Under the pieces are notes generated by a model. The model was not told the DNA's origin. It saw only the letters and a list, made by a program, of their open reading frames with translations, and did no database searches. A stretch of 64,000 bases of DNA from Squalus acanthias (lineage: Eukaryota): assembly GCA_030390025.1 (NCBI GenBank), contig CM059431.1:151778001-151842000 (forward strand), in the 5' to 3' direction. Position numbers and translations under genes: made by a program. Below are positions 6,088 to 58,063 of the stretch, in pieces. Position 1 is the stretch's first letter. Each line of letters begins with the position of its first letter.

Positions 6088-6989
6088 TCATATTTTGTTA
6101 ACCAAGTTCCGAAACAATACCCAGGGAGATTTCACTAATCTCACCAGCTCTTCCCTGAATCTGGTTTGGGTTGATGCATAAATGCACGTGTTTGTACAGG
6201 AGCTCAAATACATGAGCATAAATCCGGTTACAGAGGCGATGTATGCAGGAGAGGTATAATCGCTTCGGTCAAAAATGACCAGGGAGTTAATTGAATAACT
6301 AACGATAGATGTCAGCCACAAGACTATAAAACTGCCCGTTACACTGAACAGTAAAATGATGGATTTCCTCCGGTTCGCCATCTCAGGATCGCTCTGATTC
6401 TCACTGCAGTGACCCCGGAGTCTCCTGCGGGCTCTACTGGCCACTAAAATACGTCTGACTGTCAAACAATTAAACAGAAATATGAAAGCGATAGGAAGCC
6501 GTATACTTAAAAAACTTTCTAACCAGATGAATGCTGTACCAACAGACGTGGTAAAAAAGCCCATTTTCAAGCGGCAACCCCAGTTAATATTGTTAATTAT
6601 TCGTTCAGTTTCATATGCAAACGAATAGGGGATATTGTCTAAACAGAGCAGAACAGAGACCGTTGTTATGACGGCGGCGGCAGTTCTGACTGTGCAATAT
6701 TTCGTTTTAAACTTCTCACAACTTATCGCGACATAGCGGTCGAATGTGAAGGTGACGGTAAACCACACGGACATGTCGAGGGCAGCAGCATTCAAGTATA
6801 TAAGTAACCTACAGATGGCAGTGTAGCCGAGGAATGAATGTGGAAAGTGATATGTAAAAACGCGATACAGCAGCACATTGACGATCATGACCAGTAGATC
6901 TGCTGTTGCCATGGCCACCATGTAGACAGAGATACATTTGGATAGACCACATTTTCCTCCGGAGAGAATCACGATTGTCAGTAGGTTTG
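6088..6989 (-). CDS. GPR139/GPR142-like class A GPCR copy A, coding exon 2 (join 8552..8621, 6088..6989; 323 aa, intact)
   Basis: Hydrophobic TM segments with ANLLTIVILS, ATADLL, TFDRY, DPEMANRRKSIILL, SCTNTCIY. Acceptor tctttcttacag ends at 6990, and a phase-1 join with exon 1 restores GIP-A-NLL. Confidence 0.93.
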
Positions 6990-7228
6990 CTGTAAGAAAG
7001 AGCGACAAGCGGTCAGTAACGGGCACTCGGATAAATCTCACACCATATTGTGGGGAAATGTGCAGATGTGTCCCTGTGCAGGCGGATTTTTAATTATATA
7101 GGCGAGCGTTAACAAAGAGCAGTTTTTAAAACAAACATTGAACTCTCAGTATGGAGGGACTGAAAATCCGCCGCCCTTCCCTGCAGACTTCAGACCGCCA
7201 TCGCCAAATATCAAATTACTGCAAAGAT

Positions 7229-7977
7229 ATGGGGCCGAAAATTGATCCCGGGACGCGAGAGTACGCACTGCATACTCTCGCCTATTCCCACTCCAATTGC
7301 CGGTTTTCTGCATGCCCTGCGCATGCGCTGAAAACCGGCAATTGCTCTTCCGAAAAGGGGGCGGGGCCTGAGTGCATCGCGTGCGCGCTACAGGCTGCGC
7401 GCACGCTGTGCACTTCATGCTTTGGACGCGCAGGTAAGTAGGGAAGATTTTGGAAATGTAAAAAGGAGGAGTAAGACCCGCTTTTAAGAAGGTAAGTAGT
7501 GAATTAAGTATTTTTTTGAATTTTTTTTTACAGGTATATCTTTTTTATAGACTTTAAAGACAGGTAAGTTTATTTTTATAACTTTTTAAAAGATTTTAAA
7601 TTTTTTCAAAAATTTAATTTTTTATTTAAAATGGTTAATTTAATTAACTATACTTATTTTATTAATGTGATGGTTTTTTTTTAAAATTTAATTGAGGTTT
7701 AGCTGTTATTTTGGGGGGGTGTAAGATTCATAAGTCTCTCAGCCATGCTGTGAGACTTATGAATGGAAGATGGTGTGCTGCCATTGGATCTAACTGAGTC
7801 ACGTGATCCCACAGCTCGCACGAATTAACTACGCCGCTGGGATACGCAAGCCCAGCACAGCTGATGTCTGGAACATCAATTTCGTGCGAGCTGGATCAGA
7901 AAAAGCATAAGCGAGGTGAGACATCGCGGGAAAGGCTTACCCCCGCGGGAACAGAGCGAGATCAATTTCTGGGCCAT
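7229..7977. mobile_element. Probable MITE / non-autonomous DNA transposon in the copy A intron
   Basis: Imperfect terminal inverted repeats ATGGGGCCGAAAATTGATCCCG (7229) and CGAGATCAATTTCTGGGCCAT (7957-7977), CpG-rich ends, AT-rich centre; absent from the introns of copies B and C. Confidence 0.5.
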
Positions 7978-8551
7978 GAATTCGAACGAAGCAATCAGTT
8001 GCGAGAACATAATTGAATTTAGGTCGAAACTCTGCGCTTTTTATATGCACAATCGCCCTGGGAGGGTGAGGGAGCTGCTCGGTAACAGAGTGGGAGTTGG
8101 TGGAGACGCGAATGTTCTTTGCAGCCGAGGGGAGTGGAGCAGCTCCTGAGCGGCAATTATTGCTGAAAGTATCTTTCAAAGTCCCCTGTTGGGTGGAGGT
8201 GGCTGCAGTCCGAGCGATTATCAACGTAAAATAAGCAGGGTACAAGTGTACAACTGATGTGATTACTATCCACAGGAAGCAACACATCCTGCAGTGATCT
8301 CTATACTGTTGGAGGGGCCGGGAAATGTCAGCTTCGCCCTCCCTCAGTACAGGGAGGAAAGCCGAGCGCCCAGCACCCACGACTACCGACCAGCCTCACC
8401 AGCATAGTGGACTGGTTGGATTCCCAATGAAATTCAGCAACTTATCCCGATGGATAATTGACTCTGCAATGAGGACATTCTGAGAATCATCACATTATCA
8501 TTAACACTGAGATAGTCAACAGCCATTCGACAACAGGATTCACAGACTTAC

Positions 8552-8621
8552 CGGGAATGCCAAAGGCTGCGAGAGCAGGATAGTAAATGATGTACACCAT
8601 TTGAATTGTTGGCAGTAACAT
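8552..8621 (-). CDS. GPR139-like GPCR copy A, coding exon 1 (MLLPTIQMVYIIYYPALAAFGIP)
   Basis: 70-nt exon ending in G|gtaagt donor at 8552/8551, the same length as exon 1 of copies B and C. In-frame upstream ATGs at 8678 and 8687 lie at or above the predicted TSS. Confidence 0.88.
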
Positions 8622-8699: not shown

Positions 8700-8750
8700 T
8701 TTATAGAAAGCTCGGTTCCCCGGTGACAATATTAGTCACACGACAATTGG
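8700..8750 (-). promoter_or_regulatory. TATA box (TATAAA 8705-8700) and CCAAT (8750-8746) of GPCR copy A
   Basis: Motifs seen ~80 and ~125 bp upstream of the ATG; TATA position is conserved in copy B. Confidence 0.6.
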
Positions 8751-9028
8751 CGTTAGTTACAGTCACTTAACCAACATGGCAAGATTTTCCGCTTCAGTGT
8801 GCCTGGGACAACAAAGGTTACGTTTTACAACTCAGTTCATGAAATTCCATTAATTCAAATTAATGAACGGGAACTCATAGCAGATGGAGTGTACTGGGAA
8901 CAAGCACCGTGACACCCAAAGGGCACTTCCCACACGGGCACTGCTTTCGATTACTTGAACCTCGTAATGATTCGTGAAATCTTAACTCATTCATTAGGAA
9001 GTTAAATTTAGGTTTGCTCCATGATGAT

Positions 9029-12000
9029 AAATGGAGGTGACCCTACTCTAACCTTACTGGTGGTGAGGCTACTCTTACATTACTGGTGGTGATTCTACAC
9101 TAACATTACTGGAGGCGACCAAAGTCTAACATTACTGGTGGTGACTCGACTCTCAGATTACTGCTGGTGACTCTAGACTAACATTACTGGTGGTAACCCA
9201 CTCTAAACTTACTGGTGGTGGCTCAGCTCTAACATTACTGATGGTGACTTTACTCGAACATAAATCGTGGTTACTCTACACCAACATTACTGGTGGTGAC
9301 CCTACTCTAACTTTAGTGGTGGTGACCATACTCTAACATTACTGGTGGTGACTCTACTTAAACATTACTGGTGGTGACTCTACTCTCAAATTACTGGAGG
9401 TGACCCTACTCTAACATTACTGGTGTTGAATCTACTCTAACATTACTGGTGGTGTGTCGACATTAACATTACTGGTGGTGACTCTACTCTAACATTTCTG
9501 GTGGTGAATCTACTCTAACATTACTGGTGGTGACCTTACGCTAACATTACTGGTGGTCACCCTACTCTAACATTAATTGTGGTGACCCTAATCTAACATT
9601 ACTGGTGGTGACTCTACTCTAACATTACTGGTGGTGATTCTACTCTAACATTACTGTTGGTGACCCTCCCCTAACATTACTGGTTGTGACTCTAGTCCAA
9701 CGTTACTGCTGGTGACTCTACTCTAACATTACTGGTGGTGAGTCTACTCTAACATTACTGGTGGTGACTCTACTCCAACATTACTTGTGATGACGCTACT
9801 CCAACATAACTGGTGGTGACCCTACTCTAACATTACTGTTGGTGTTTCTACTCTAACATTAATGGTGGTGAGTCTACTCTCACATTACTGGTGGTGACTA
9901 TACTCTAACATTACTGGTGGAGACCCCACTCCAAACCTACTGGTGGTGGCTCTACTCTAACCTTACTGATGGTGACTTTACTCGAACATTAATCGTGGTG
10001 ACTCTACACCAACATTACTGGTGGTGACACTACTCTAACCTTCGTGGTGGTGACCATACTCTAACATTACTGCTGGTGACTCTACTTAAACATTACTGGT
10101 GGTGACTCTAATCTAACATTACTGGTGGTGACCTTACTCAGACATTACTGGTGGTCACCCTACTCTAACATTAATGGTGGTGACCCTAATCTAACATTAC
10201 TGGTGGTGACTCTACTCTAACATTACTGGTGGTGATTCTACTCTAACATTACTGTTGGTGACCCTCCCCTAACATTACTGGTTGTGACTCTAGTCCAACG
10301 TTACTGCTGGTGACTCTACTCTAACATTACTGGTGGTGAGTCTACTCTAACATTACTGGTGGTGACCCTACTCTATCATTACTGGTGGTGACTCTACTCT
10401 AACATTACTGGTGGTGACTCTACTCTAACATTACTTGTGGTGAATCCACTCCAACATTACTGGTGGTGACCCTACTCTAACATTACTGTTGGTGACTCTA
10501 CTCTAACATTACTGGGGGTGACTCTACTCTTACATTACTGGTGGTGACTCTACTCTAACATTACTGGTGGTGTATCTATTCTAACATTACTGATGGTGAC
10601 TCTACTCCAACGTTACAGGTGGTGATCCTACTTCAACATTACTGGTGGTGACCCCACTCTTTACTTACTGGTGGTGGCTCTACCCTAACCTTACTGATGG
10701 TGACTTTACTCGAACATTAATCGTGGTGACTCTACACCAACATTACTGGTGGTGACCCTACTCTAACCTTAGTGGTGGTGACCATACACTAACATAACTG
10801 GTGGTGACTCTACTTAAACATTACTGGTGGTGACTCTACTCTCAAATTACTGGTGGTGACCCGACTCTAACATTACTGGTGGTGAATCTACTCTAACATT
10901 ACTGGTGGTGTGTCTACACTAACGTTATCGGTGGTGACCCAACTCTAACATTACTGGTGGTGACTCAACTCTAACATTACTGGTAGTGACTCTACTCTAA
11001 CATTACTGGTGGTGACTCTACTCTAACATTACTGGTGGTGAATCTACTCTAACATTACTGGTGGTGTGTCTACACTAACGTTACTGGTGGTGACCCAACT
11101 CTAACATTACTGGTGGTGACTCAACTCTAACATTACTGGTAGTGACTCTACTCTAACATTACTGGTGGTGTCTCTAGTCTAACATTACTGGTTGTGACTC
11201 TACTCTAACATTACTGTTGTTGACCCTACTCTAACATTACTGGTTGTGACTCTACTCCAACGTTACTGGTGGTGACCCTACTCTAACATTACTGGTGGTG
11301 ACTCTACTGGAACATTACTTGTGGTGACTCTACTCTAACATTAATGGTGGTGAGTCTACTCTAACATTACTGGTGGTGAGTCTACTCTAACATTATTTGT
11401 GGTGAGTCTACTCTAACATTACTGGTGGTGACTCTACTCTAACATTACTGGTGTTGACAACAGTCTAACATTACTGGTGGTGAGTCTACTCTAACATTAC
11501 TGGTGGTGTGTCGACTCTAACATTATTGTTGGTGACCCTACTCTAACATTACTGGTGGTGACCCTACTCTAACATTACTGCTTGTGGCTCTACTCCAACG
11601 TTATTGGTAGTTACTCTACTCCAACATTACTGTTGGTGACTCTACTCTAACATTACTGTTGGTGACTCTACTCTAACATTACTGGTGGTGAGTCTACTCT
11701 AACATTACTGGTGGTGAGTCTACTCTAACATTACTGGTGGTGACTCTACTCCAACATTACTTGTGATGACGCTACTCCAACATAACTGGTGGTGACCCTA
11801 CTCTAACATTACTGTTGGTGTTTCTACTCTAACATTAATGGTGGTGAGTCTACTCTCACATTACTGGTGGTGACTATACTCTAACATTACTGGTGGAGAC
11901 CCCACTCCAAACCTACTGGTGGTGGCTCTACTCTAACCTTACTGATGGTGACTTTACTCGAACATTAATCGTGGTGACTCTACACCAACATTAGTGGTGG

Positions 12001-15000
12001 TGACTCTACTTAAACATTACTGGTTGTGACTACTCTCAAATTACTGGTGGTGACCCGACTCTAACATTACTGGTGGTGACCTTACTCTAACATTACTGGT
12101 GGTCACCCTGCTCTTACATTACTGGTGGTGACTCTACTCTAACATTACTGTTGGTGACCCTACTCGAACAGTACTGGCGGTGACTCTACTCCAACATTAC
12201 TGTTGGTGACCCCACTCTAAACTTACTGGTGGTGGCTCTACTCTAACGTTACTGATGGTGACCTTACTCGAACATTAATAGTGGTGACTCTACACCAACA
12301 TTACTGGTGGTGACCCTACTCTAACCTTTGTTGTGGTGACCATACTCTAACATTACTGGTGGTGACTCTACTTAAACATTACTGGTGGTGACTCTACTCT
12401 CAAATTACTGGTGGTGACCCTACTCTATCATTGCTGGTGGTGAATCTACTCTAACATTACTGGTGGTGTGTCTACTCTAACATTACTGGTGGTGACTCTA
12501 CTCTAACATTAATGGTGGTGACTCTACTCTAACATTACTGGTGGTGACTTTACTCTAACATTACTGGTGGTGACTCTACTCTAACATTACTGGTGGTGAC
12601 TCTACTCTAACATTAATGGTGGTGACTCTACTCTAACATTACTGGTGGTGACTTTACTCTAACATTACTGGTGGTGACTCTACTCTAACATTACTGGTGG
12701 TGACTCTACTCTAACATTACTGGTGGTGAGTCTAATCTAACATTACTGGTGGTGACCCTACACTAACATTACTGGTGGTGACTCTACTCTAACATTACTG
12801 GTGTTGTCCACAGTCTAACATTGCTGGTGGTGAGTCTACTCTAACATTACTGGTGTTGTGTCGACTCTAACATTACTGTTGGTGACCCTACACTAACATT
12901 ACTGGTGGTGACCCTACTCTAACATTACTGGTGGTGACTCTACTCGAACGTTACTGGTGGTGACTCTACTCTAACATTACTGGTTGTGACTGTACTCTAA
13001 CATTAATGGTGGTGACTCTACTCCAACATTAATGTTGGTGACTCTACTCTAACATTACTGGTGGTGAGTCTAATCTAACATTACTGGTGGTGACCCTACA
13101 CTAACATTACTGGTGGTGACTCTACTCTAACATTACTGGTGGTGTGTCTACTCTAACATTACTGGAGGTGACTCTACTCTAACATTACTTGTGGTGACTC
13201 TACTCCAACATTACTGGTGGTGACCCTCCTCTAACATTACTGTTGGTGTCTCTAATCTAACATTAATGGTGGTGAGTCTACTCTAACATTACTGGTGGTG
13301 ACTCTACTCTAACATTACTGGGGTTGACTCTACTCTTACATTACTGGTGGTGACTCTACTCTAACATTACTGGTGGTGTCTCTACTCTAACATTACTGAT
13401 GGTGACTCTACTCCAACATTACTGGTGGTGACCCCACACTTAACTTACTTGTGGTGGCTCTACTCTAACATTACTTATGGTGAATTTACTCGAACATTAA
13501 TCGTGCTGACTCTACACCAACATTACTGGTGGTGACCCTACTCTAACCTTAGTGTTGGTGACCATACTCTAACATTACTGGTGGTGACTCTACTTAAACA
13601 TTACTGGTGGTGACTCTACTCTCAAATTACTGGTGGTGACCCGACTCTAACATTACTGGTGGTGAATCTACTCCAGCATTACTGGTGGTGTGTCTACACT
13701 AACATTACTGGTGGTGACCCTACTCTAACATTACTGGTGGTGACTCTACTCTAACATTACTGGTGGTGACTCTACTCTAACATTACTGATGGTGACTCTA
13801 CGCTAACATTACTGGTGGTGACTCTACACTAACATTACTGGTGGTGACTCTACTCTAACATTACTGGTGGTGACTCTACTCTAACATTACTGGTGGTGAC
13901 TCTACGCTAACATTACTGGTGGTGACTCTACTCTAACATTACTGCTGGTGTCTCTACTCCAACGTTACTGGTGGTGACTCTACTCTAACATTACTGGTGG
14001 TGACTCTACTCTAACATTACTGGTGTTGTCCACAGTCTAACATTGCTGGTGGTGAGTCTACTCTAACATTACTGGTGTTGTGTCGACTCTAACATTACTG
14101 TTGGTGACCCTACAGTAACATTACTGGTGGTGACCCTACTCAAACATTAATGTTGGTGACCCTACTCTAACATTAATGGTGGTGACTCTACTCCAACATT
14201 AATGTTGGTGACCCTACACTAACATTACTGGTGGTGACTCTACTCTAACATTACTGGTGGTGTGTCTACTCTAACATTACTGGAGGTGACTCTACTCTAA
14301 CATTACTTTGGTGACTCTACTCCAACATTACTGGTGGTGACCCTCCTCTAACATTACTGTTGGTGTCTCTAATCTAACATTAATGGTGGTGAGTCTACTC
14401 TAACATTACTGGTGGTGACTCTACTCCAACATTACTGGTGGTGACCCTCCTCTAACATTACTGTTGGTGTCTCTAATCTAACATTAATGGTGGTGAGTCT
14501 ACTCTTACATTACTGGTGGTGACTCTACTCTAACATTACTGGTGGTGTCTCTACTCCAACATTACTGGTGGTGACCCCACACTTAACTTACTTGTGGTGG
14601 CTCTACTCTAACATTGCTTATGGTGAATTTACTCGAACATTAATCGTGCTGACTCTACACCAACATTACTGGTGGTGACCCTACTCTAACCTTAGTGTTG
14701 GTGACCATACTCTAACATTACTGGTGGTGACTCTACTTAAACATTACTGGTGGTGACTCTACTCTCAAATTACTGGTGGTGACCCGACTCTAACATTACT
14801 GGTGGTGAATCTACTCCAGCATTACTGGTGGTGTGTCTACACTAACATTACTGGTGGTGACCCTACTCTAACATTACTGGTGGTGACTCTACTCTAACAT
14901 TACTGGTGGTGACTCTACTCTAACATTACTGGTGGTGACTCTACGCTAACATTACTGGTGGTGACTCTACTCTAACATTACTGCTGGTGTCTCTACTCCA

Positions 15001-18000
15001 ACATTACTGGTGGTGACTCTACTCCAACGTTACTGGTGGTGACTCTACTCTAACATTATTGGTGGTGACCCCACTCTAAACTTAATGGTGGTGGCTCTAC
15101 TCTAACCTTACTTTTGGTGACTTTACTCGAACATTAATCGTGGTGACTCTACACCAACATTACTGGTGGTGACCCTACTCTAACCTTAGTGGTGGTTACC
15201 ATACTCTAACATTGCTGGTGGTGACTCTACTTAAACATTACTGGTGGTGACTCTACTCTAACATTACTGGTGGTGACCTTACACAAACATTACTGGTGGT
15301 GACCCTACTCCAACGTTACTGGTGGTGAGTCTACTCTAACATTACTGGTGGTGAGTCTACTCTAACATTACTGGTGGTGACCCTACTCTAACATTACTGG
15401 TGGTGACCCTACTCTAACATTAATGGTGGTGACCCTAATCTAACATTACTGGTGGTGACTCTACTCTAACATTACTGGTGGTGATTCTACTCTAACATTA
15501 CTGTTGGTGACCCTACTCTAACATTACTGGTGGTGACCCTCCTCTAACATTACTGGTTGTGACTCTACTCCAACGTTACTGGTGGTGAGTCTACTCTAAC
15601 TTTACTGGTGGTGACTCTACTCTAACATTACTGGTGGTGAGTCTACTCTAACATTACTGGTGGTGACCCTACTCTATCATTACTGGTGGTGACTCTACTC
15701 TAACATTACTGGTGGTGACTCTACTATAACATTACTTGTGGTGAATCCACTCCAACATTACTGGTGGTGACCCTACTCTAACATTACTGCTGTTGTCTCT
15801 ACTTTAACATTAATGGCGGTGAGTATTCTCTTACATTACTTGTGCTGACTGTACTCTAACATTACTGGTGGTGACTCTACTCCAACATTACTGGTGGTGA
15901 CTCTACTCTAACATTACTGGTGCTGTCCCCAGTCTAACATTACTGGCGTTGAGTCTACTCTAGCATTACTGGTGGTGTGTCGACTCTAACATTGCTGTTG
16001 GTGACCCTACTCTAACATTACTGGTGGTGACCCTACTCTAACATTACTGGTGGTGACTCTACTCTAACATTACTGTTGGTGACCCTACTCTAACATTAAT
16101 GGTGGTGACTCTACTCCAACATTAATGTTGGTGACTCTACTCTAACATTACTGGTGGTGAGTCTAATCTAACATTACTAGTGGTGACCCTACACTAACAT
16201 TACTGGTGGTGACTCTACTCTAACATTACTGGAGGTGACTCTACTCTAACATTACTTGTGGTGACTCTACTCCAACATTACTGGTGGTGACCCTCCTCTA
16301 ACATTACTGTTGGTGTCTCTAATCTAACATTAATGGTGGTGAGTCTACTCTAACATTACTGGTGGTGACTCTACTCTAACATTACTGGGGTTGACTCTAC
16401 TCTTACATTACTGGTGGTGACTCTACTCTAACATTACTGGTGGTGTCTCTACTCTAACATTACTGATGGTGACTCTACTCCAACATTACTGGTGGTGACC
16501 CCACACTTAACTTACTTGTGGTGGCTCTACTCTAACATTACTTATGGTGAATTTACTCGAACATTAATCGTGCTGACTCTACACCAACATTACTGGTGGT
16601 GACCCTACTCTAACCTTAGTGTTGGTGACCATACTCTAACATTACTGGTGGTGACTCTACTTAAACATTACTGGTGGTGACTCTACTCTAACATTACTGG
16701 TGGTGACTCTACGCTAACATTACTGGTGGTGACTCTACTCTAACATTACTGCTGGTGTCTCTACTCCAACATTACTGGTGGTGACTCTACTCCAACGTTA
16801 CTGGTGGTGACTCTACTCCAACATTACTGGTGGTGACTCTACTCTAACATTACTGGTGGTGAGTCTAATCTAACATTACTGGTGGTGACCCTACACTAAC
16901 ATTACTGGTGGTGACTCTACTCTAACATTACTGGTGTTGTCCGCAGTCTAACATTGCTGGTGGTGAGTCTACTCTAACATTACTGGTGTTGTGTCGACTC
17001 TAACATTACTGTTGGTGACCCTACACTAACATTACTGGTGGTGACCCTACTCTAACATTACTGGTGGTGACCCTACTCTAACATTAATGGTGGTGACTCT
17101 ACTCCAACATTAATGTTGGTGACCCTACTCTAACATTAATGGTGGTGACTCTACTCCAACATTAATGTTGGTGACTCTACTCTAACATTACTGGTGGTGA
17201 GTCTAATCTAACATTACTGGTGGTGACCCTACACTAACATTACTGGTGGTGACTCTAATCTAACATTAATGGTGGTGAGTCTACTCTAACATTACTGGTG
17301 GTGACTCTACTCCAACATTACTGGTGGTGACCCTCCTCTAACATTACTGTTGGTGTCTCTAATCTAACATTAATGGTGGTGAGTCTACTCTTACATTACT
17401 GGTGGTGACTCTACTCTAACATTACTGGTGTTGTCTCTACTCCAACATTACTGGTGGTGACCCCACACTTAACTTACTTGTGGTGGCTCTACTCTAACAT
17501 TACTTATGGTGAATTTACTCGAACATTAATCGTGCTGACTCTACACCAACATTACTGGTGGTGACCCTACTCTAACCTTAGTGTTGGTGACCATACTCTA
17601 ACATTACTGGTGGTGACTCTACTTAAACATTACTGGTGGTGACTCTACTCTCAAATTACTGGTGGTGACCCGACTCTAACATTACTGGTGGTGAATCTAC
17701 TCCAGCATTACTGGTGGTGTGTCTACACTAACATTACTGGTGGTGACCCTACTCTAACATTACTGGTGGTGACTCTACTCTAACATTACTGGTGGTGACT
17801 CTACTCTAACATTACTGGTGGTGACTCTACGCTAACATTACTGGTGGTGACTCTACTCTAACATTACTGCTGGTGTCTCTACTCCAACATTACTGGTGGT
17901 GACTCTACTCCAACGTTACTGGTGGTGACTCTACTCTAACATTATTGGTGGTGACCCCACTCTAAACTTAATGGTGGTGGCTCTACTCTAACCTTACTTT

Positions 18001-21000
18001 TGGTGACTTTACTCGAACATTAATCGTGGTGACTCTACACCAACATTACTGGTGGTGACCCTACTCTAACCTTAGTGGTGGTTACCATACGCTAACATTG
18101 CTGGTGGTGAATCTACTTAAACATTACTGGTGGTGACTCTACTCTAACATTACTGGTGGTGACCTTACACAAACATTACTGGTGGTCACCCTACTCTAAC
18201 ATTAATGGTGGTGACCCTAATCTAACATTACTGGTGTTGACTCTACTCTAACATTACTGGTGGTGATTCTACTCTAACATTACTGTTGGTGACCCTACTC
18301 TAACATTACTGGTGGTGACCCTCCTCTAACATTACTGGTTGTGACTCTACTCCAACGTTACTGGTGGTGAGTCTACTCTAACATTACTGGTGGTGACCCT
18401 ACTCTATCATTACTGGTGGTGACTCTACTCTAACATTACTGGTGTTGTCCACAGTCTAACATTGCTGGTGGTGAGTCTACTCTAACATTACTGGTGTTGT
18501 CCACAGTCTAACATTGCTGGTGGTGAGTCTACTCTAACATTACTGGTGTTGTGTCGACTCTAACATTACTGTTGGTGACCCTACACTAACATTACTGGTG
18601 GTGACCCTACTCTAACATTACTGGTGGTGACCCTACTCTAACATTAATGGTGGTGACTCTACTCCAACATTAATGTTGGTGACTCTACTCTAACATTACT
18701 GGTGGTGAGTCTAATCTAACATTACTGGTGGTGACCCTGCACTAACATTACTGGTGGTGACTCTAATCTAACATTAATGGTGGTGAGTCTACTCTAACAT
18801 TACTGGTGGTGACTCTACTCCAACATTACTGGTGGTGACCCTCCTCTAACATTACTGTTGGTGTCTCTAATCTAACATTAATGGTGGTGAGTCTACTCTT
18901 ACATTACTGGTGGTGACTCTACTCTAACATTACTGGTGGTGTCTCTACTCCAACATTACTGGTGGTGACCCCACACTTAACTTACCTGTGGTGGCTCTAC
19001 TCTAACATTAATTATGGTGAATTTACTCGAACATTAATCGTGCTGACTCTACACCAACATTACTGGTGGTGACCCTACTCTAACCTTAGTGTTGGTGACC
19101 ATACTCTAACATTACTGGTGGTGACTCTACTTAAACATTACTGGTGGTGACTCTACTCTCAAATTACTGGTGGTGACCCGACTCTAACATTACTGGTGGT
19201 GAATCTACTCCAGCATTACTGGTGGTGTGTCTACACTAACATTACTGGTGGTGACCCTACTCTAACATTACTGGTGGTGACTCTACTCTAACATTACTGG
19301 TGGTGACTCTACTCTAACATTACTGGTGGTGACTCTACGCTAACATTACTGGTGGTGACTCTACTCTAACATTACTGCTGGTGTCTCTACTCCAACATTA
19401 CTGGTGGTGACTCTACTCCAACGTTACTGGTGGTGACTCTACTCTAACATTATTGGTGGTGACCCCACTCTAAACTTAATGGTGGTGGCTCTACTCTAAC
19501 CTTACTTTTGGTGACTTTACTCGAACATTAATCGTGGTGACTCTACACCAACATTACTGGTGGTGACCCTACTCTAACCTTAGTGGTGGTTACCATACTC
19601 TAACATTGCTGGTGGTGACTCTACTTAAACATTACTGGTGGTGACTCTACTCTAACATTACTGGCGGTGACCTTACACAAACATTACTGGTGGTCACCCT
19701 ACTCTAACATTAATGGTGGTGACCCTAATCTAACATTACTGGTGTTGACTCTACTCTAACATTACTGGTGGTGATTCTACTCTAACATTACTGTTGGTGA
19801 CCCTACTCTAACATTACTGGTGGTGACCCTCCTCTAACATTACTGGTTGTGACTCTACTCCAACGTTACTGGTGGTGAGTCTACTCTAACATTACTGGTG
19901 GTGACCCTACTCTATCATTACTGGTGGTGACTCTACTCTAACATTACTGGTGGTGAGTCTACTCTAACATTACTGGTGGTGACCCTACTCTATCATTACT
20001 GGTGATGACTCTACTCTAACATTACTGGTGGTGACTCTACTATAACATTACTTGTGGTGAATCCACTCCAACATTGCTGTTGGTGACCCTACTCTAACAT
20101 TACTGGTGGTGACCCTACTCTAACATTAATGGTGGTGACTCTACTCCAACATTAATGTTGGTGACTCTACTCTAACATTACTGGTGGTGAGTCTACTCTA
20201 ACATTACTGGTGGTGACCCTACACTAACATTACTGGTGGTGACTCTACTCTAACATTACTGGAGGTGACTCTACTCTAACATTACTTGTGGTGACTCTAC
20301 TCCAACATTACTGGTGGTGACCCTCCTCTAACATTACTGTTGGTGTCTCTAATCTAACATTAATGGTGGTGAGTCTACTCTAACATTACTGGTGGTGCCT
20401 CTACTCTAACATTACTGGGGTTGACTCTACTCTTACATTACTGGTGGTGACTCTACTCTAACATTACTGGTGGTGTCTCTACTCTAACATTACTGATGGT
20501 GACTCTACTCCAACATTACTGGTGGTGACCCCACACTTAACTTACTTGTGGTGGCTCTACTCTAACATTACTTATGGTGAATTTACTCGAACATTAATCG
20601 TGCTGACTCTACACCAACATTACTGGTGGTGACCCTACTCTAACCTTAGTGTTGGTGACCATACTCTAACATTACTGGTGGTGACTCTACTTAAACATTA
20701 CTGGTGGTGACTCTACTCTCAAATTACTGGTGGTGACCCGACTCTAACATTACTGGTGGTGAATCTACTCCAGCATTACTGGTGGTGTGTCTGCACTAAC
20801 ATTACTGGTGGTGACCCTACTCTAACATTACTGGTGGTGACTCTACTCTAACATTACTGGTGGTGACTCTACTCTAACATTACTGGTGGTGACTCTACTC
20901 TAACATTACTGCTGGTGTCTCTACTCCAACATTACTGGTGGTGACTCTACTCCAACGTTACTGGTGGTGACTCTACTCTAACATTATTGGTGGTGACCCC

Positions 21001-25690: not shown

Positions 25691-25779
25691 ACCGCTTTCA
25701 GCTCCAAGAGAAAGCAATCAATTAACTATCTTAAGTACAATTACCTGACTTGCACTAGATTGTGAATTGATACCAGGAT

Positions 25780-26140
25780 GAGATGTTTTGGCGAGTTGTG
25801 CCCAGGTGCTTTAGGTTAAGAAGGTACGGTACAGAATAGAAAGAAGCAGACTGCTGCCAATATTTGAAGGTTCTGGGACTAACGGCTATAGATTAAAGAA
25901 TGGATTGAAGAGATTTAGAACGGGTGGTCAGAGACTCCTCTTTATAAGGAGAGTGGTGAAGCTGTGAAATTAATAGAGGCAGAAATTATGTCAAAATTGG
26001 AGAATAATTTGTGTGAACAAAAGTAGGTTGAATTAATGTTGAGACCGGGCGGATAAAGTGATTGGAACTATTTAATCGGCTGGAGGGTGAACGCTGAGAA
26101 GGACTAATTGGGATATACAGTCTTTTCCCCTCTTATAACA
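25780..26140 (+). mobile_element. Highly degraded CR1-like 3' fragment
   Basis: Remnants resembling RLIPGM and FFxRRVVxxWN coding sequence (AGGAGAGTGGTGAAGCTGTG) and a CR1-like 3' UTR. Confidence 0.45.
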
Positions 26141-29284: not shown

Positions 29285-29361
29285 TTTCAGAAGACTGTGT
29301 GAATACTGTCCTGCATTACAGTTCCGACTGGTGTTTATCTGAGATCCGTAAATTCGCCCCC

Positions 29362-41600: not shown

Positions 41601-41857
41601 CTGGTTGTGACTCTACTCTAACATTACTGGTGGTGACCCTACCCTAAAATTACTGGATATGAACGTATTCCAGCATTCCTGCTGCTGACTCTACTGTTAC
41701 ATTATTGTTTGTGACTCTATTCTATCATCACTGCTGGTGAACCTACTCCAACATTACTGGTGGTGACTCTACTGGAACATTAATGGTGATGATCCTGCTC
41801 TAACATTACTGATTGTCACTCTTCTCTAATATTACTTGAGCTGACACTAATCTAACA
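29663..41857 (+). repeat. 26-bp satellite array 2, homogeneous part (~470 units)
   Basis: Same consensus and same variant monomers as array 1; degenerate at both edges. Confidence 0.97.
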
Positions 41858-45800: not shown

Positions 45801-48590
45801 GATGGTGACCCTAGTCTAACATTACTGGTGTTGACCACACCCTAAAATAACTGTTTGTGACTCTACTCTAGCATTATTTGTGATCACCCTACTCTGACAC
45901 TACTGCTGGTGATTCGACTGAACATTACTCTTGACGAGCACTCTCTAAAGTTAATGGTTGTGAACCTAATTTATAATTATTGGAGATAACACTGATCTAA
46001 CAATTCTGCTTTTGAGCCTACTCTAACATTACTAGTGTGGAGACTACTCTCCCATTACTGTTGATGAACCTACTCTAACCTTACTGGTGGTGACCCTCCG
46101 CTAACATTTCTGGTGTTGACCTACTATTACATTAATGATTGTGACTGTCCTTCAGCATTAATGATTGTGACTGTGCACTAAGATTGTTGTTTCTGACTGT
46201 ACTCTAACATGCCTGGGGTTGATTCCACTGTAACAGTAATGGTGGTGGCCACACTCTAAGATTATTGGTAATGTACCTGCTATATCATTACTTTTGGTCA
46301 ACAAACTATATCATTACTGTTGCTGACCTTAAACTAATTTACTGGTTGTCAATCTACAATGGCATTACATGAGATGACCCTACTCTACCCTTACTTTGGT
46401 GACTCTACACCAAAATTAATCGTGTTGATCCTACTATATTTTTAATGCGGGTGAACACATTCTAACATTACTGGTGGTTTCTCTACATGAACATCACTGA
46501 TGGTGACTCGACTCTAACATTACTGCTGATGATCCTACACTAACATTACTTGTGGTGACTCTACTCTAACTTTGCTGGTGATTATCCTACTGTAATATTA
46601 CTGGTGGTGACACTACTTTAACATTACTGGTGGTGGCTGTACTCGAACATTATTTGTGGTGTATCTAATCGAACATTACTGGTGGTGACCTTACTCTAAC
46701 ATTACTGGTGGTCACCCTACTCTAACATTAATGGTGGTGACCCTAATCTAACATTACTGGTGGTGACTCTACTCTAACATTACTGGTGGTGATTCTACTC
46801 TAACATTACTTGTGGTGACTTTACTCTAACATTACTTGTGGTGACTTTACTCTAACATTACTGTTGGTGACTCTACTCTAACATTAATGGTGGTGACTCT
46901 ACTCCAACATTACTGGTGGTGACCCCAGTCTAACATTACTGGTGGGGAGTCTAATCTAACATTACTGGTGGTGTGTCGACTCTAACATTACTGTTGGTGA
47001 CCCGACTCGAACATTACTGGTGGTGACCCGACTCGAACATTACTGATGGTAACTCTACTCCAACATTATGGTTGGTGACTCTACTCTAACATTAATGGTG
47101 GTGACTCTACTCTAACATTACTTGTGGTGACTCTACTCCAACATTACTGGTGGTGACGCTACTCTAACATTACTGTTGGTGAGTCTACTCTAACATTAAT
47201 GGTGGTGACTCAGCTCTAACATTACTGGTGGTGAGTCTACTCTAACATTACTGGGGGTGACTCTACTCTAACATTACCATTGGTGATCCTACTCTAAGAT
47301 TACTGTTCGTGGCTCTACTCGAACATTACCTGTGGTGTATCTAATCGAACATTACTGATGGTGAACCTACTCTAACATTAACGGTGCTGAGCCTATTCTT
47401 ACCTTACTGATGATGACTCTGCTTTAACATTACTTTTGGTTACTCTGCTCTGTCATTACTGGTGTTTACCATTCTCTAACTATACTGGTGCTCAACCTAC
47501 TCTAACATTATAGTTGGTGACTGTATTCTAACATTACTGAGGTGACATTACTCGAACATTAATGATTGTGACTCTACTCTAAAATTACTGTATGTGACCG
47601 CACACTAAAATAACTAATGGTGACCCTACTCCAACAGTACTTTTACCAATACTGGTGATGACTTTACACTAAAATTACCGGTGTTGACTCTACTCTAACA
47701 TTACTAGTGATGACTGAACTCTAATATTACTGAACGTGACACCACTATAACATTACTGGTCGTGAATCTACAGTAACGTGACTGATAATGAGTCTTCTCT
47801 AACATTACTGATGGTCATTCTACCCTAACATTATTATTGGTGACCCCACGCAATGATTACATGTTGTGACTAATCTTACATTACTGATGTTAACTCCACA
47901 CAAATATTACTGGTGATGAGCATTCACTGATGTTTCTGGTTGTGACTCTACTCTAACATTAGAGCTGGTGGCCCGATTCTAACATTACTGTTGGTCACCC
48001 TAGTCTAACAGTACTGGTGGTGACTCTACTGGAACACTACTGGTGACGACCAAACTCTGAAGTTAAAGGTTGTGAACTTAATGTTTAATTATTGGAGATG
48101 ACACTAATCTAACAATTCTGCTGCTGAGCCTACTCTAACATTACTAGTGAGGAGACTAACTACCATTACTGGTGATGAAACTACTCTAACCCTATAGGTG
48201 GTGACACTACCCAAATATCACTGGTGTTGCTCCTACTATAACATTAATGATTGCGACTGTACTCTAGCATTAATGATTGTGACTCTGCACTAAGATTGTT
48301 GTTTCTGACTTTACTCTAACATTCCTGGAGTTGATTCCACTCTAACATTACTGGTGTTGGCCACACTCTAAGATTATTGTTAATGCCCATACTATAATAT
48401 TATACCGGTGATGACTAAAATTATTGATTGTGAGCCCCATCTAACATAACATGTGGTCACTCTACTCTAACATTAGCGGTGTTGAACCTACTGGAAATTA
48501 CCTTTGGTTACCCTACTCTATGATTATTGATGATGACTCCACACTAACAGTAATGGCGAGGACAAATCTCTGACATTACTGCTGGTGACC
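42841..48590 (+). repeat. Degenerate continuation of the 26-bp satellite (~220 units)
   Basis: Recognisable CTAACATTACTGGTGGTGA core with many substitutions and indels; less degenerate island at ~46660-47270. Confidence 0.92.
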
Positions 48591-51280: not shown

Positions 51281-51680
51281 GTAATGTTAAAATAGGGTCA
51301 TGACCAGTAATGTTAGTGTCGTGTGAATATCAGAAAAATTAGAGAAGAGCTACCACCAGTAATGTTAGAGTGCAATCACCAACAGTAATGTTAGAGTAGA
51401 ATCACCAACGGTGCTGCTAGAGTAGGATCATCACGGGTAATTCTAGAATAATATCACCACCAGTAGTGTTAGAGTAGAATCACCAACAGTACTTTTAGAG
51501 TCGAGTCATCTCCAATAATGCTAAAGTAGAGTCACAACCAATAATATTAGGCGAGGGTCGCTACCAATTTTGTTCCAGTACAGTCGCCTCCAGTAATGTT
51601 AGAGTTGGGTCAACATCAGTATTGTTAGAGTAGAGGCTGCACCAGCAACGTTCGAGCAGGGTCAACAGCAGTAAGATTAG
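51281..51680 (-). repeat. Degenerate 26-bp satellite remnant in reverse orientation
   Basis: Repeated CACCACCAGTAATGTTAGAGTAGA units. Confidence 0.9.
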
Positions 51681-52688
51681 CATCTGCCACATTTGACCCC
51701 TGGTGACCTCACCTCATTGTCTTTGATGTCATGTTTTCCTGACTGACCTGTTTGGATACCATCCACACCTGTGATTGCCGTGATTGTCTCTCTGCCGAGG
51801 AGAGGTAAAGGGCATTAGAAAGATTAACTGTAATCATCTGGCAGTGTTCTCTGACTATATATGCTGTGCCTATATGCATCTCTTCACTTCACCTGACTAA
51901 GAAGCAGCGCTCCGAAAGCTTGTGATTTCAAATAAAGCTGTTGGACTATAACCTGGTGTTGTGCGACTTCTCACATTTGTCTACCCCAGTCCAACACTGG
52001 CATCTCCACATCATGGCTACAATCGAAACCAAAAACTGTCGGCTCAAAGTGAGACGATCTCCAAGAAGATCACGCATATCGACGCAGACATCAAGTTTCT
52101 ACAGAGATGCAAGAAAGCAGACAAGATCCCGAAAGACTACAGATCAGGAACCCACTCAAGACGACATACAACACAGACTACGCTGAGAGACTATGCCGTC
52201 CTACCTCTTACACACTCCTCAACCATCTCGTACACCAGCTCTACAGCAGACGCCGCAACCTCGAAACCAAGATAGAGTCCATGTTCTCAGCCTGTGCTCA
52301 GGACACAGCAGACCAGCTACGAGACACCGCCAAACAGATGAGGCAACGGAACTACGCTGCCTACATGCACACCAAGAACAGGAAGCTTGAGAAACTCGGC
52401 ATCACCACCAGCAGCAACCAAGCCTCCCCTGGTACCACGGTTGCAACCACAGGGAAGACCATCGTCAACTTGTCCGACCACACCCTTCAACCAGACGAAA
52501 TCGAAGTTCACAGCCGAGGGCTCAATTTCTGCCCCACCACCAAAATGGACCCCATCGGTCTCGCGGCAGACACAGAGGAATTCATCAGGAGGATGAGGCT
52601 CCGGGAATTCTTCCACGAATCCCAAGATGTCAGCAGCGAACCCAATGAGACAATCAATGATCTGGAACAGCAGACAGAGTGACCCGCA

Positions 52689-54452
52689 GTGCAGCAACCG
52701 AAGAAGAAAGAGTCAAATTGGACCCCTCCTGAGTGGCGCTGCCCTAAGCTTGACATGTATGCTCAAGCTGTCAGGAGATGCATCAAAGCCAGATTAATCA
52801 GCCGCACTCACAAGCCAGTCCAGAATGTCACCCGAGCACAACACAACGCCATCCACGCTCTCAAGACCAACCGGAACATCGTCATCAAACCAGCGGACAA
52901 AGGAGGAGCCATCGTCATACAGAACAGAATGGACTATTGCAAAGAATCATACCGACAACTGCACAACCAGGAACACTACAGACAGTTACACGCAGATCCG
53001 AACAAAGAACAAACCCGCCAACTCAATAGACTGATCAAGACCTTCGATCCAGACCTTCAAAGCATCCTATGCACTCTCATTCCACGTACTCCCCGCGTGG
53101 GAGACTTCTACTGCCTCCCAAAGATACACAAAGCCAACACACCCGGAAGTCCTATCGTATCAGGCAACGGAACCCTGTGTGAGAACCTCTCTGGATATGT
53201 CGAGGGCATCCTGAAACCCATCGTACAGGGAACCCGCAGCATCTGTCGCGACATTACAGACTTCTTACAGACACTCAGCACCCACGGACCAGTTGAACCA
53301 GGAGCACTCCTCGCCACGATGGATGTATCGGCACTCTACACCAATATCCCCCATGATGACGGCATCGCTGCGACAGCCTCAGTACTCAACACCAACAACA
53401 TCCAATCTCCAGACGCCATCCTACAACTCATCCGCTTCATGCTTGACCACAATGTCTTCACCTTCGATAACCATTTTTTTACCCAAACACATGGAACAGC
53501 CATGGGGACCAAATTCGCACCCCAATACGCCAACATCTTCATGCACAAGTTCGAGCAAGACTTCTTCGCTGCACAGGACCTCCAACTAACGCTATACACC
53601 AGATACATCGACGACATTTTCTTCCTATGGACCAACGGCGAAGAATCACTGAAAAGACTACACGATAACATCAACAAGTTCCATTCCACCATCAAACTCA
53701 CTATGTACTACTCCTCAGAATCGGTTTCATTCTTGGACACACGAATCTCCATCAAAGACGGACACCTCAGCACTTCACTCTACCGCAACCCCACGGACAA
53801 CCTCACGATGCTCCACTTCTCCAGCTTCCACCCTAACCACGTTAAAGAAGCCATCCACTATGGAGAAGCCCTGCGAATACACAGGATCTGCTCAGACGAG
53901 GAGGAACGCGACGGACACCTACAGACGCTGAAAGACGCCCTCGTAAGAACGGGATATGACGCTCGACTCGTCGATCGACAGTTCCGACAGGCCACAGCGA
54001 AAAATCACATAGACCTCCTCAGAAGACAAAGACGGGACATAACCAACAGAGTACCCTACGTCGTCCAGTACATCCCCGGAGCGGATAAACTACGCCATGT
54101 TCTTTGCAGCCTTCACCATGTCATCGATGACGATGAACACATCGCTAAGGCCATCCCCACGTCTCCACTACTCGCCTTCAAACAGCAACCTTACCTCAAA
54201 CAAACCATCGTTAGCAGCAAATTACCCAGCTTTCAGGCGAACAGCGACCACGACACCACACAACCCTGCCACGGCAACCTCTGCAAGACATGCCAGACCA
54301 TCAACACCGATACCATCATCACACGTGACGAAACCACCCACCAGGTACATGGTACATACTCATGTGACTCGGCCAACGTTGTCTACCTCATACGTTACAG
54401 GAAAGGATGCCCTGGAGCATGGTGTATCAGCGAGAACATGCAGACACTGTGA
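52689..54452 (+). pseudogene. Penelope RT / GIY-YIG polyprotein, largest open segment (587 aa)
   Basis: ORF track with PLE RT motifs; bounded by premature TGA codons, and the YIG motif is mutated to CIS. Confidence 0.88.
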
Positions 54453-55018
54453 CAACGTATGAAAGGACACTATGCAACAATCGCCAGGCAGGAGTGTTCC
54501 CTCCGAGTCGGGGAACACTTCAGCAGTCAAGGACATTCAGCCTCCGATCTTCGGGTAAGCGCTCTCCAAGTCAGCCTTCCAGACACACGACAACGCAAAA
54601 TCGTGGAGCAGAAACTGATAGCCAAGTTCCGCACCCATGAGGACGAACTCAACCGGGATCTATGGTTCATGTCACGCTACATGTAACCCCCCCTGACGTA
54701 GAGTCATCCAGGCTCGATTCGTCGTTGGCTTGTTCTCTCCACACAGATGCGGCCGGACCTGCTGCGATTTCCAGCAAAAAAAGTGTTTTGTTTTCCATAC
54801 TGACCCCAGCATCTGCCACAATTGACCCCTTGTGACCCCAGCTCATTGTCTTTGATGTAATGTTTTCCTGACTGACCTGTTTGGACACCATCCACACCTT
54901 TGATTGCCGTGATTATCTCTCTGCCGAGGTGTGATAAAGGGCAGTTGGCAAGATTAACTGTAATCACCTGGCAGTGTTCTCTGACTATATAGGCTGTGCC
55001 TATATGCATCTCTTCACT

Positions 55019-55055
55019 TCACCTGACGAAGGAGCAGCGCTCTGAAAGCTTGTGA
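55019..55055 (+). ncRNA. Minimal hammerhead ribozyme motif in the 3' pseudo-LTR of Penelope element 2
   Basis: TCAC-CTGACGA-A-GGAGC-AGC-GCTCT-GAAA-GCTT-GTGA. The homologous 5' copy at 51889-51925 has a core mutation (CTGACTA). Confidence 0.7.
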
Positions 55056-55143
55056 TTTCAAATAAAGCTGTTGGACTATAACCTGGTGTTGTGCGACTTC
55101 TCACATTTGTCCAGCCCAGTCCAACACCGGCATCTCCACATCA

Positions 55144-55700
55144 CAGTAATGTTAGAGTGCGGTCACCAGCAGTAATGTTACTGTAGAGTCACCAGAATTA
55201 ATGTTCGAGTAGATTCACTATCAGTAATGTTAGAGTAGGGTCACTTCCAGTAATGTTAAGTCAGAGTCACCACCAGTAATGTTAGAGTGCGGTCACCACC
55301 AGTAATGTTACTGTAGAGTCACCAGCTGTATTGTTAGAGTAGATTCACTACCAGCAATGTTAGAGTAGGGTCACTTCCAGTAATGTTAGAGGAGGGTCCT
55401 CACAATTAATGTTAGTGCAGGGTCTCCATCAATAATCTTCGGTTCAATCATGACCAATAATGTTAGCGTAGGTTCACCTCCAGTAATTGTAGAGTAGAGT
55501 CACCACCAGTAATGTTAGATTAGGGTCATCACCAGTAATCTTACTGTAGGATCACCACCAGTAATATTCGAGTAGAATCATCACCATTAATGTTAGGTGT
55601 TGGCCACTATCAGTAATATTAGTGTAGGTTCACCACCAGTAATATTAGAGAAGGGTGACCACCAGTAATGTTAGGACAGAGTCGTCAACAGTATCGTTAA
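55144..55700 (-). repeat. 26-bp satellite remnant, reverse orientation, upstream of GPCR copy C
   Basis: 55345-55700 is the reverse complement of the degenerate leading edge of array 2 (~29663-30090). Confidence 0.92.
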
Positions 55701-56079
55701 AGCGTTACTTATGTAATGGATGAGAGAAATTTCACCAATTTATGTGAGCCCCTGGGAAGCTAACACAGGAACTTGGAGAGATGTTCCCTGCAGGGTTCAC
55801 ATGACGGGCGCAGAGCACAGTCACTCTGGAATTAACTCCCCTTCATTGTTTTTAATGGACGGTGTATCATGGACTCAGCTGTACAATTTCCCCATTGGGC
55901 GTACTGAAGCGGAAAATCGCCACTTGTTTCTTAAGTAGCTGTAACTAAGTTCAATTATTATGTAACGTGATTTTCTCACCAGGGCACGGATTGTTTAATA
56001 AAGGGGGATAATTTACGGATCTCAGATAAACGCCAGTCGGAACTGTAATGCAGGACAGAATTCACACAGTCTTCTAAAA

Positions 56080-58063
56080 ATGGCACGGTCAATAATTGTA
56101 CAGATAAAGGACATAAATTATCATTTTCTCGCAGTCTTTGGTATTCTCGGTAAGTCAATGCATCCTTTTGTTTTATAGTTGTTAACGATCTCACTGTTAA
56201 TGATTATGTTACAGATTCCGTGAATACAGAGAAGTGTGAGGTGATGCATTTTGTCAGAAGGAACAGGGAGAGGCAATATACACTCAATGGCACAGTTTTA
56301 AAGATTGTGCAGGGACAGAGTTAATGTGCATAGGTCCCTGATAATGGCGGGACATATTGCGAGAGTGGTTAACAACGTATATGAATCTTGGGCTTCATGA
56401 ATACAGGTATTGAGTACAATAGTAGAGAAGTGATGCTGAACGTTTATAAAACGCTAGTTAGGCCACAACTGGAGTATTGCGTCCAGTTCTGATCACCACA
56501 CTTTAGGAAGGATGTGAAGGCCCTTGAGAGGGTGCAGAGGAGAATTACCAGAATGGTTCCGGGGATGGGGGTTCTTGGCTACAAGGACAGGTTGGAGAAG
56601 CTGGATTTTCTTTAATTAGAGCAAAGGAGGTTGAGAAGTGATTTGATAGAGATGTAAAAGATTATGGCGGGTTTCGATAGGCTAGACGGGGAAAGGCTCT
56701 TCCCACTAGTTGATGGTAAAAAGACTAGGGGACACAGATTTAAGGTTTTGTGTGAGAGATACAGAATGATTTTAAAAAAGAGTTTTTGACGCAGTGAGTG
56801 GTGAGCACCTGGAATTCACTGCCGACGGAAGTGGGAAAGAGGAGACACTCAATGTTTTCAAGGGCTCACTGGATATGCACTTAAGGGAAATAATCTCGTA
56901 GGGCTACGGGGATAGCGGGGGGTGAATGAGTCTCACTGGAGTGCTCTACAGAGAGCCGGCACGGACTCTATGGGCCGAATGCCCTCCCTCTCTGCTGTAA
57001 TGTGTGTATGGCTCTTTTACTCCTCAACGCTCGCCTATATGACAAAACATCAATGTAGTAACACTAAGTAGGGACACATCTGAGCATTCCCCACAATAAG
57101 CTGTGAGGTTTATCCGGATGTCCCTGTTACTAAACTCTTCTCCCTCTTCCTTACAGCGAACCTACTGACAATCCTGATTCTCTACAGAGGAAATTGCGAC
57201 CTTTCCAAATGTATCTCGATCTACATGATGACCATGGCGACAGCAGATCTACTGATCATCATCTTCCATATACTGGTATTTCAGATTTTCTGTTACCACT
57301 TTCCGCATTCATTCCTGTCCTACACTGCCGTGTGTAAATCCATTCATTACATCAATACCATTACCCTGGATATGTCGGTGTGGTTTACAGTCTTGTTCAC
57401 TTTTGACCGATTTGTAACTATATGTTGTCAGAAGTTTAAAACAAAGTATTGCACAGAGCGAACTGCGGCAGCTGTTTTACCAACTGTCCTTGTGCTGGTC
57501 TGTATAGAGAATATGCCCTTTCCTTTCTCCTATGAATCTCAACGAATCAATTAACAATGTTTCCTGGGAATGCCGCACCAGTGAAGCCTTTTATTCATCG
57601 CCTGCAGTCATAGCCTATTTGCGCATTCAAAATATTTTAGTTCCATGGTTTGCTGTTGCTTTGATAATATTGTTTAATTGTTTAACAGTCAGACGAATTG
57701 TAGTAAGAAGTAGGGCCCGCAGGGGACTCCGGGGTCAAAGCAGTGAGAATCAGAGCGATCCAGAGATGGAGAGCCGGAGGAAATCCATCATTTTACTGTT
57801 CACAGTATCGGGCAGTTTTATACTGTTGTGGTTGACATCTGTCGTGAGTAACTTGAAGAACAGCCTGGCCGTTTACTACAAAGGTGAATATGAAACCCCT
57901 GCATGCATCCTGTCTGAAAGTGGATTATGCTCTTATATTTGAGTTTCTGTACAAACACCTGCATTTATGCAGCGACACAAACCAAATTCAGGCAAGAGTT
58001 GGTGAAGATGGTGAAATCTCCTTGACATTGATTCTGAAATTGGTTAATAAAATGAAGAATTTA
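56080..58063 (+). pseudogene. GPR139-like GPCR copy C, frameshifted (exon 1 56080-56149, exon 2 57157-~58063)
   Basis: Inverted paralog of copy B. ATG and splice sites intact; +1 A at ~57550 gives TAA at 57552; -1 indels at ~57925 and ~58021; TATA box altered to TTAATAAA. Confidence 0.88.
56222..57005 (+). mobile_element. CR1 3' fragment in the copy C intron (duplicate of 27790-28570)
   Basis: Reverse complement of the copy B intronic CR1. Confidence 0.88.

Follow-up and report, generated by a model that had tools for sequence, protein, structure and literature searches.

The coupling of genes to tandem repeats is already known in other organisms. In Trypanosoma brucei the 70-bp repeats upstream of VSG genes provide homology for duplicative gene conversion (PMC4858185), and in the purple sea urchin GA and GAT repeats have been proposed as the edges of segmental duplications of the SpTransformer (Sp185/333) genes (PMC8634487). 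Beta-satellite blocks interspersed in the human 19p12 zinc-finger cluster are linked to expansion of that cluster, as cited in later work (PMC3018141; PMC2671837), and in Drosophila the small euchromatic 1.688 and Rsp-like arrays undergo exchange and take up insertions, the proposed routes being microhomology repair and circular DNA (PMC7403614). Here we analysed a 64,000-bp window (the whole stretch G000:C7:151778001-151842000) from the 3.7-Gb genome of the shark Squalus acanthias, in which a 26-bp satellite lies upstream of the promoters of class A G-protein coupled receptor (GPCR) genes. Described below are a two-ended transfer, the apparent capture of a promoter and a control provided by an intron.

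We consider it reasonably likely, from the sequence comparisons set out below, that the 26-mer upstream of the promoter was inherited from a founder gene and serves as shared co-directional homology for the occasional copying of genes from array to array. As with the VSG 70-bp repeats, an oriented repeat with both long and short arrays adjoins the members of a large gene archive; it lies next to 59 of 60 sampled members of one subfamily and to none of 33 relatives outside it. VSG switching is, however, a programmed transfer into expression sites that was proved by experiment, whereas the shark event appears to be an old copy, fixed in the germline, with both ends in the repeat, and in the shark each gene's own promoter sits between repeat and gene. 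Boundaries in the repeat were found for this one event, at both ends, and other duplications end elsewhere. The shark genes resemble those of SpTransformer in being clustered, of two exons and each tied to tandem repeats, although in the sea urchin repeats of 2-3 bp flank each gene, whilst the shark unit of 26 bp lies on the upstream side in arrays of up to 14 kb, a second flanking array being the next gene's own. The 19p12 cluster, as cited in those later papers, is likewise a vertebrate gene cluster interspersed with satellite blocks, and in the shark too such blocks lie among the genes and were duplicated with them; set beside that cluster, the shark cassette has a fixed promoter distance and one transfer resolved to the monomer. 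A 1998 paper by Eichler et al. reportedly links beta-satellite to the 19p12 zinc-finger cluster expansion in its title. In the Drosophila case satellite moves into satellite, whereas in the shark an entire gene with its promoter seems to have moved between arrays. No published account of a satellite-receptor coupling, or of this family and its expansion, was found in the literature covered, which excluded most subscription papers, and the accessible main text of the catshark genome paper (PMC11979771) makes no mention of the cassette under the terms tried.

The window holds three class A GPCR genes (A, B and C), each of two exons, which are arranged with their satellite arrays as follows.

6088..6989, minus strand: gene A exon 2, open, with a 7tm_1 domain (323 amino acids together with exon 1)
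8552..8621, minus strand: coding part of gene A exon 1, with ATG at 8621 and a phase-1 donor
8700..9031, minus strand: gene A promoter, TATAAA at 8705-8700 and a 326-bp spacer to the array
9032..23116, plus strand: array 1, 540 monomers of the 26-mer, read as the young expanded part of gene A's array
22988..23116, plus strand: last 5 monomers of array 1, of donor type
23117..29674, minus strand: inserted B unit (3′ flank, gene and promoter), 95.8% identical to G000:C7:150921479-150928008 over 6573 bp, junction included
26730..27637, minus strand: gene B exon 2, an open reading frame
29215..29284, minus strand: gene B exon 1, with CTG where the family has its start ATG
29362..29674, minus strand: gene B promoter, TATAAA at 29367-29362 and a 307-bp spacer
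29675..41861, plus strand: array 2, 464 monomers
29675..30088, plus strand: first 15 monomers of array 2, of donor type, in register with the arrays of C-position genes
41862..42840, minus strand: fragment of a long interspersed nuclear element (LINE), 978 bp
42855..48579, plus strand: array 2b, 195 older monomers, read as the distal part of gene A's ancestral array
51281..51670, minus strand: distal piece of gene C's array, 15 monomers
55146..55690, minus strand: proximal piece of gene C's array, 19 monomers
55691..56149, plus strand: gene C promoter, in which AATAAA replaces TATAAA at 55997-56002, and exon 1, with ATG at 56080
57157..58063, plus strand: gene C exon 2, frameshifted; gene C is A's head-to-head partner in the ancestral block

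The array and TATA coordinates given in a first-pass annotation of this stretch were right to within about 12 bases, and its claim that the arrays keep one orientation relative to the gene and flip when the gene flips held both in the window and at all 59 array-bearing loci sampled genome-wide. The array-to-TATA distance is 326 bp for A, 307 bp for B and about 307 bp for C. That annotation had missed the CTG that replaces the start ATG of B, the frameshift in C and the state of C's TATA box, which is read as mutated because the aligned site is AATAAA; gene C is likely a pseudogene. Gene A, which is intact, has an additional in-frame ATG upstream of ATG 8621.

B and C had been taken at first pass for one recent duplication, which is wrong in detail: they are only 91.8% identical, B's closest copies (95-97%) lie elsewhere, and the inserted unit copies a gene some 0.88 Mb distant (95.8% identity), at C7:150.928 Mb. 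The gene there occupies the ancestral C position and lies between two co-directional arrays, the second of which is the next gene's, and the 33 bases across the junction of array 1 with B's 3′ flank occur, with up to two mismatches allowed, in exactly two places, the other being this locus. The best match to the last five monomers of array 1 is the array beside that gene (94.6%, 200 bits; the next match scores 167, with 111 matching targets), and the five monomers preceding them match many arrays equally. On the other side of the unit, array 2 opens with 15 monomers that match C-position arrays at 93.5-98.8%, and the 15 that follow have their best match in the window's own young array, the change to monomers shared with A falling at about 30089-30140. 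Because the last five and the first 15 monomers are of donor type and the monomers beyond them are not, we place both ends of the B insertion in the satellite.

The sharing of rare monomer variants by arrays 1 and 2, reported at first pass, was confirmed: the two have 25 exact variants with at least three mismatches in common (25/91 and 25/123 types), distributed along nearly their entire lengths, and array 1 has no such variant in common with 60 other array sets, among them those of the paralogues 94-95% identical to A. Array 2 carries these shared variants in its middle, and its tail matches the tail of A-type proximal arrays. The LINE fragment behind it agrees in its 978-bp length and in its junctions with the one found in the arrays of A's closest paralogues, and the block running from A through array, LINE and further arrays to C has three other copies, at 150.51, 150.72 and 153.20 Mb, in which A's promoter and the LINE are separated by 51-61 monomers and no gene; the tail of array 2 is in register with the tails of their proximal arrays. 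Given the shared variants, the LINE, the gene-free blocks and the tail register, arrays 1 and 2 are read as the two halves of A's expanded array, with B inside what was A's ancestral array. Gene B was likely copied into that array by recombination through the repeats, that is, by satellite-to-satellite transfer.

Gain and shuffling of members in large vertebrate receptor families are usually inferred without visible breakpoints. Here the monomer variants act as a barcode, by which a gene copy is traced to a donor-type locus about 0.88 Mb away with both ends placed within a few monomers. If the B copy did arise by recombination through the repeats, then the repeat is a route for gene birth, and with some 200 cassettes the share of births that pass through satellite can be counted directly.

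Two other accounts of the insertions were dropped. A one-ended insertion with a microhomology junction made at the B locus was given up once the donor-type locus proved to have the same junction. Also rejected was a satellite-targeting transposon, the 978-bp inserts of the window and of two other loci (L001 and L003) sharing their junctions and representing one inherited insertion; other inserts in arrays differ in family and phase.

A genome search with A's exon 2 returned 4670 first-look candidates, and 131 of these were scored; after two window genes had been dropped a systematic draw of 80 was made, and the first 60 were fetched. An array lies upstream and co-oriented in 59 of these 60 paralogues, and a promoter match with an array upstream of it was found at 58, locus L030 having neither array nor promoter match and L031 an array and no promoter match. 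A further subfamily gene, met by chance at L080, has neither within 8.5 kb. Sixty promoters were aligned (57 loci plus the window's three), and gene A's promoter and spacer can be aligned with those of all subclades; TATAAA is kept in 54 of the 60, at 223-406 bp from the array, and its distance to the splice donor is 145-157 bp in nearly all. A 19-base promoter motif has 127 exact matches in the genome and is present in 37/60 sampled loci, which suggests that the assembly has about 200 subfamily promoters, probably with some unmerged haplotypes among them. Coding sequences of different subclades are separated by a ratio of non-synonymous to synonymous substitution (dN/dS) of 0.36-0.58. The monomer consensus is identical, bar one C/T site, in nine subclades whose promoters are 64-90% identical to each other.

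Exact 26-mer monomers number 4861 genome-wide (0 for reversed controls). The first one listed, at C7:136.96 Mb, marks the start of the gene cluster, and because the lists follow contig order, exact monomers appear to be missing from contigs 1-6 and from C7 up to 137 Mb. All 19 matches to a rare monomer variant fall at C7:138-151 Mb or on unplaced contigs, and the exact 26-mer pattern was found in no stretch of metagenome contigs.

Relatives outside the subfamily were gathered by a search with a diverged member, and lie on C21, C26, C29, C23, C30, C17, C18 and C6 and on numerous unplaced contigs. The 26-mer is absent from the 9 kb preceding exon 2 in all 33 such genes (exon 1 was located within the stretch for 23), and no single ancestral monomer was found upstream of exon 1 in these subfamilies, the best candidates showing 11-12 mismatches (seven loci). 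Eight genes of one diverged lineage (L075 and L081-L087, with 42-44% protein identity to A) carry the 26-mer. In a midpoint-rooted family tree, from which exon 2 matches under 240 amino acids were excluded, this lineage groups among the outside subfamilies, and its synonymous divergence (dS) from the satellite subfamily is 1.5-2.2. Its promoter core is nevertheless 0.67-0.77 identical to that of the satellite subfamily, on a par with the 0.75 between the subfamily's own subclades and well above the 0.44-0.52 of two outside controls, and the arrays of L081-L087 each adjoin an inverted array back-to-back. The lineage apparently acquired promoter core and satellite together in an old capture, through an inversion that would have broken inside the repeat. 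Its genes (L075 and L081-L087) stand head-to-head with a partner promoter across the back-to-back satellite junction, and dN/dS within the lineage is 0.84.

The first-pass statement that the satellite accompanies 'every GPR139-like gene' is hence to be narrowed to one subfamily (59/60) and one captured lineage, with 0/33 among other members; its view of the satellite as part of the inherited gene unit stands across the subfamily, where array and promoter are co-oriented at a spacing of 223-406 bp. Its further suggestion that the arrays are a recombination substrate applies to at least one rebuilt gene-copying event, and other duplications do not end in arrays.

In the mechanism that we propose, the founder gene of the subfamily would have passed on a promoter-adjacent 26-bp satellite. 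A break in A's expanded array might then have been repaired from a donor by gene conversion over about 7 kb, each end being resolved within the repeats, or a gene might have looped out as a circle between its two flanking arrays and been reinserted by one crossover; the data do not separate gene conversion from loop-out and reinsertion. By either route the new gene would regain the satellite at the same distance and in the same orientation, which would make the cassette self-perpetuating, and block duplication and exchange outside the array would operate alongside such copying. The satellite supplied the homology for gene copying in one event, and we infer that this is a recurring route; no transcriptional role is needed to explain the observations.

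Several observations weigh against this reading. The two-ended event was rebuilt only once, and three further C-position copies match the promoter half of B as closely as the junction-bearing one does, so that C7:150.928 Mb is to be called a donor-type locus and the exact donor is uncertain. At that locus just a few bases are shared at the older junction, where satellite meets LINE DNA. Among 26 gene pairs at least 95% identical, 11 share flank beyond the proximal array, and in these the array was carried inside the duplicated piece; entire blocks of 30-50 kb have been duplicated, array included; and L039 (G000:C7:139798797) is a chimera broken outside the array, with an M-type array, promoter and exon 1 and an exon 2 that is 99.6% identical to the E-type gene L037. 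The sharing of monomer variants mostly tracks gene identity (35 of 42 pairs at ≥95%, 8 of 1347 at 75-90%), so exchange between distant subclades must be rare, and other receptor subfamilies expanded without the 26-mer. The co-location expected genome-wide at first pass, which holds for 59/60 paralogues, is also weaker when approached from the satellite. We took 22 arrays from the monomer lists, none already tied to a scored gene, and fetched the predicted side: only 13 (11/16 and 2/6) have promoter and exon 2 within 10 kb, whilst for three the nearest 9 kb or so are free of genes and for two the nearest 26-27 kb. Three more lie 12-31 kb upstream of a co-oriented gene, and one stretch is entirely array.

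An ancestral 734-bp intron, modelled from nine short introns, is still present in all 51 other loci (86-100% coverage), and since it is retained just as well, the fixed position of the satellite needs no selection and is no evidence for a chromatin, enhancer or receptor-choice role. Repeats of the ribosomal DNA spacer type act as enhancers upstream of promoters, and their number changes transcription from the linked promoter. The satellite could be a selected regulatory element, an enhancer repeat or heterochromatin seed that sets or silences receptor expression, possibly down to one receptor per cell, with recombination as a side effect. Monomers do lie upstream in all 58 matched promoters, their consensus is near-uniform across subclades with diverged promoters, the captured lineage acquired satellite and promoter core together, and an unrelated 18-mer occupies a similar position in some members of a second subfamily. 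We nevertheless think such a regulatory role improbable, in view of the intron, of an array-to-core spacer conserved no better than the intron (0.57-0.77 against a mean of 0.715), of proximal arrays that range from a few monomers to 540, of arrays that persist beside frameshifted copies, and of the 18-mer being directly upstream in just two of six promoters picked regardless of it. Strong selection on the promoter spacer was not seen: conservation of 0.82-0.85 is confined to core columns 281-320, and the intron itself has a maximum of 0.83.

The retention of intron and 3′ flanks across subclades (B's 3′ flank matches at 82-85%) would equally suit a pure passenger, a satellite that happened to sit beside the founder promoter and was copied inside larger duplications, the B event being a one-off of no relevance to family growth. 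The common distal flank in 11/26 recent pairs and the many unrelated tandem repeats that arise near exon 1 in this receptor family point the same way. This is possible though unlikely, for the B transfer is two-ended, inversion junctions lie inside arrays at seven loci of the captured lineage and at L005, and 15 of the 26 recent pairs differ at the distal edge of the proximal array, some through later insertions. That the satellite settled late, and independently in each subclade, upstream of existing promoters is very hard to sustain: the subclades are old, interleaved with genes of Pristiophorus, Heptranchias, Heterodontus, Carcharodon, Scyliorhinus and rays (deep support is often low), and the monomer consensus is uniform, but the array-promoter junction can be aligned in all subclades and orientation is the same at 59/59 loci. 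Misassembly of a repeat-rich region as the source of the shared variants and the B insertion is scarcely credible; long satellites are difficult to assemble, and near-identical unplaced contigs suggest unmerged haplotypes (e.g. L052 and L055, 99.7%), yet the window contains no N, B differs by 3-5% from every other copy, and the junction monomers differ from those of the donor at about 5% of sites. Going beyond the founder-inherited satellite and occasional array-to-array copying favoured here, one might see in the 26-mer a maintained recombination handle, the vertebrate equivalent of the trypanosome 70-bp repeat, that moves entire promoter-gene cassettes from array to array, hands its promoter to unrelated lineages and perhaps is also active in somatic cells or as a chromatin mark for the choice among some 200 orphan receptors, with the second subfamily convergent through its 18-mer; we hold this to be quite doubtful.

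Membership of class A is clear from the 7tm_1 scores of genes A and B (69.3 and 63 bits, curated cut-off 30.5). The closest homologues of A are shark proteins (Pristiophorus, Heptranchias and Heterodontus) with 57-74% identity among the matches listed and scores of 350-480 bits, and nearly all close homologues are automatically named 'probable G-protein coupled receptor 139'. The best match with a solved structure is human GPR139 (PDB 7vug), which like the shark genes is a class A GPCR, but this match is weak (E 2.8e-9, 40 bits) and scarcely above that to the prolactin-releasing peptide receptor (34 bits), so that the strong, specific similarity to mammalian GPR139 expected of an orthologue is absent. 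With a human match of only 40 bits, 'GPR139-like' is best treated as a distant label and not as a statement of orthology, the similarity pattern pointing to an expanded orphan family of sharks and rays; the cassette draws attention to this very large family. No RNA record is listed as holding gene A exon 2, from which nothing is concluded, and the window has no match to any Rfam family.

Retroelements were found in and around the array and 3′ flank of gene C.

48765-50432: related retroelement copy, 84% identical to the 51679-55143 copy
51679..55143, plus strand: retroelement with 336-bp direct repeats, RVT_1 and a 589-codon open frame, which splits gene C's array and is presumably Penelope-like
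60590-61951: open reverse-transcriptase frame of 453 codons, within a roughly 1.4-kb insertion that the 3′ flank of C has and B lacks

The 26-mer monomer (window 9032-23116) contains CTGGTGG, which we take to be close to the bacterial Chi and human minisatellite core motifs; a hairpin-forming satellite was not indicated, a four-monomer fold being no better than shuffles (z 0.36). Array structure varies at some loci of the subfamily. At L005 (G000:C7:150.975 Mb) 58 monomers are inverted in mid-array and the remainder are co-oriented, whilst L052 and L055 have, at gene-oriented positions 8235-8988, about 21 degenerate 26-mers in the intron directly before exon 2 as well as the upstream array. 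At L018, L023 and L079 the opposite-strand exon 1 of a diverged family member lies against the distal end of the array and has no intervening promoter of its own.

The unrelated 18-mer was found upstream in 8 of the 33 outside genes. It was noted at the following loci.

L097, L098, L099, L102, L106, L110, L117 and L119 (G000 contigs C251, C768, C3212, C526, C2450, C30, C1230 and C29): 18-bp satellite upstream of exon 1, in some members of a second large subfamily

Its link to the genes is looser, with the 18-mer directly upstream in 2/6 promoters picked regardless of it and 4/10 18-mer arrays linked, and a common origin with the 26-mer was rejected, 816 of 2000 shuffles scoring equally well. 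The second subfamily also has repeats of 89 bp in the promoter and of 84 bp in the intron, and 10,985 exact 25-base matches were counted genome-wide. At L113 (positions 1-7100; G000:C3432) more than 300 copies of a 23-bp repeat lead directly into the end of an exon 1 of the family, splice donor included, as though the array had grown out of the exon.

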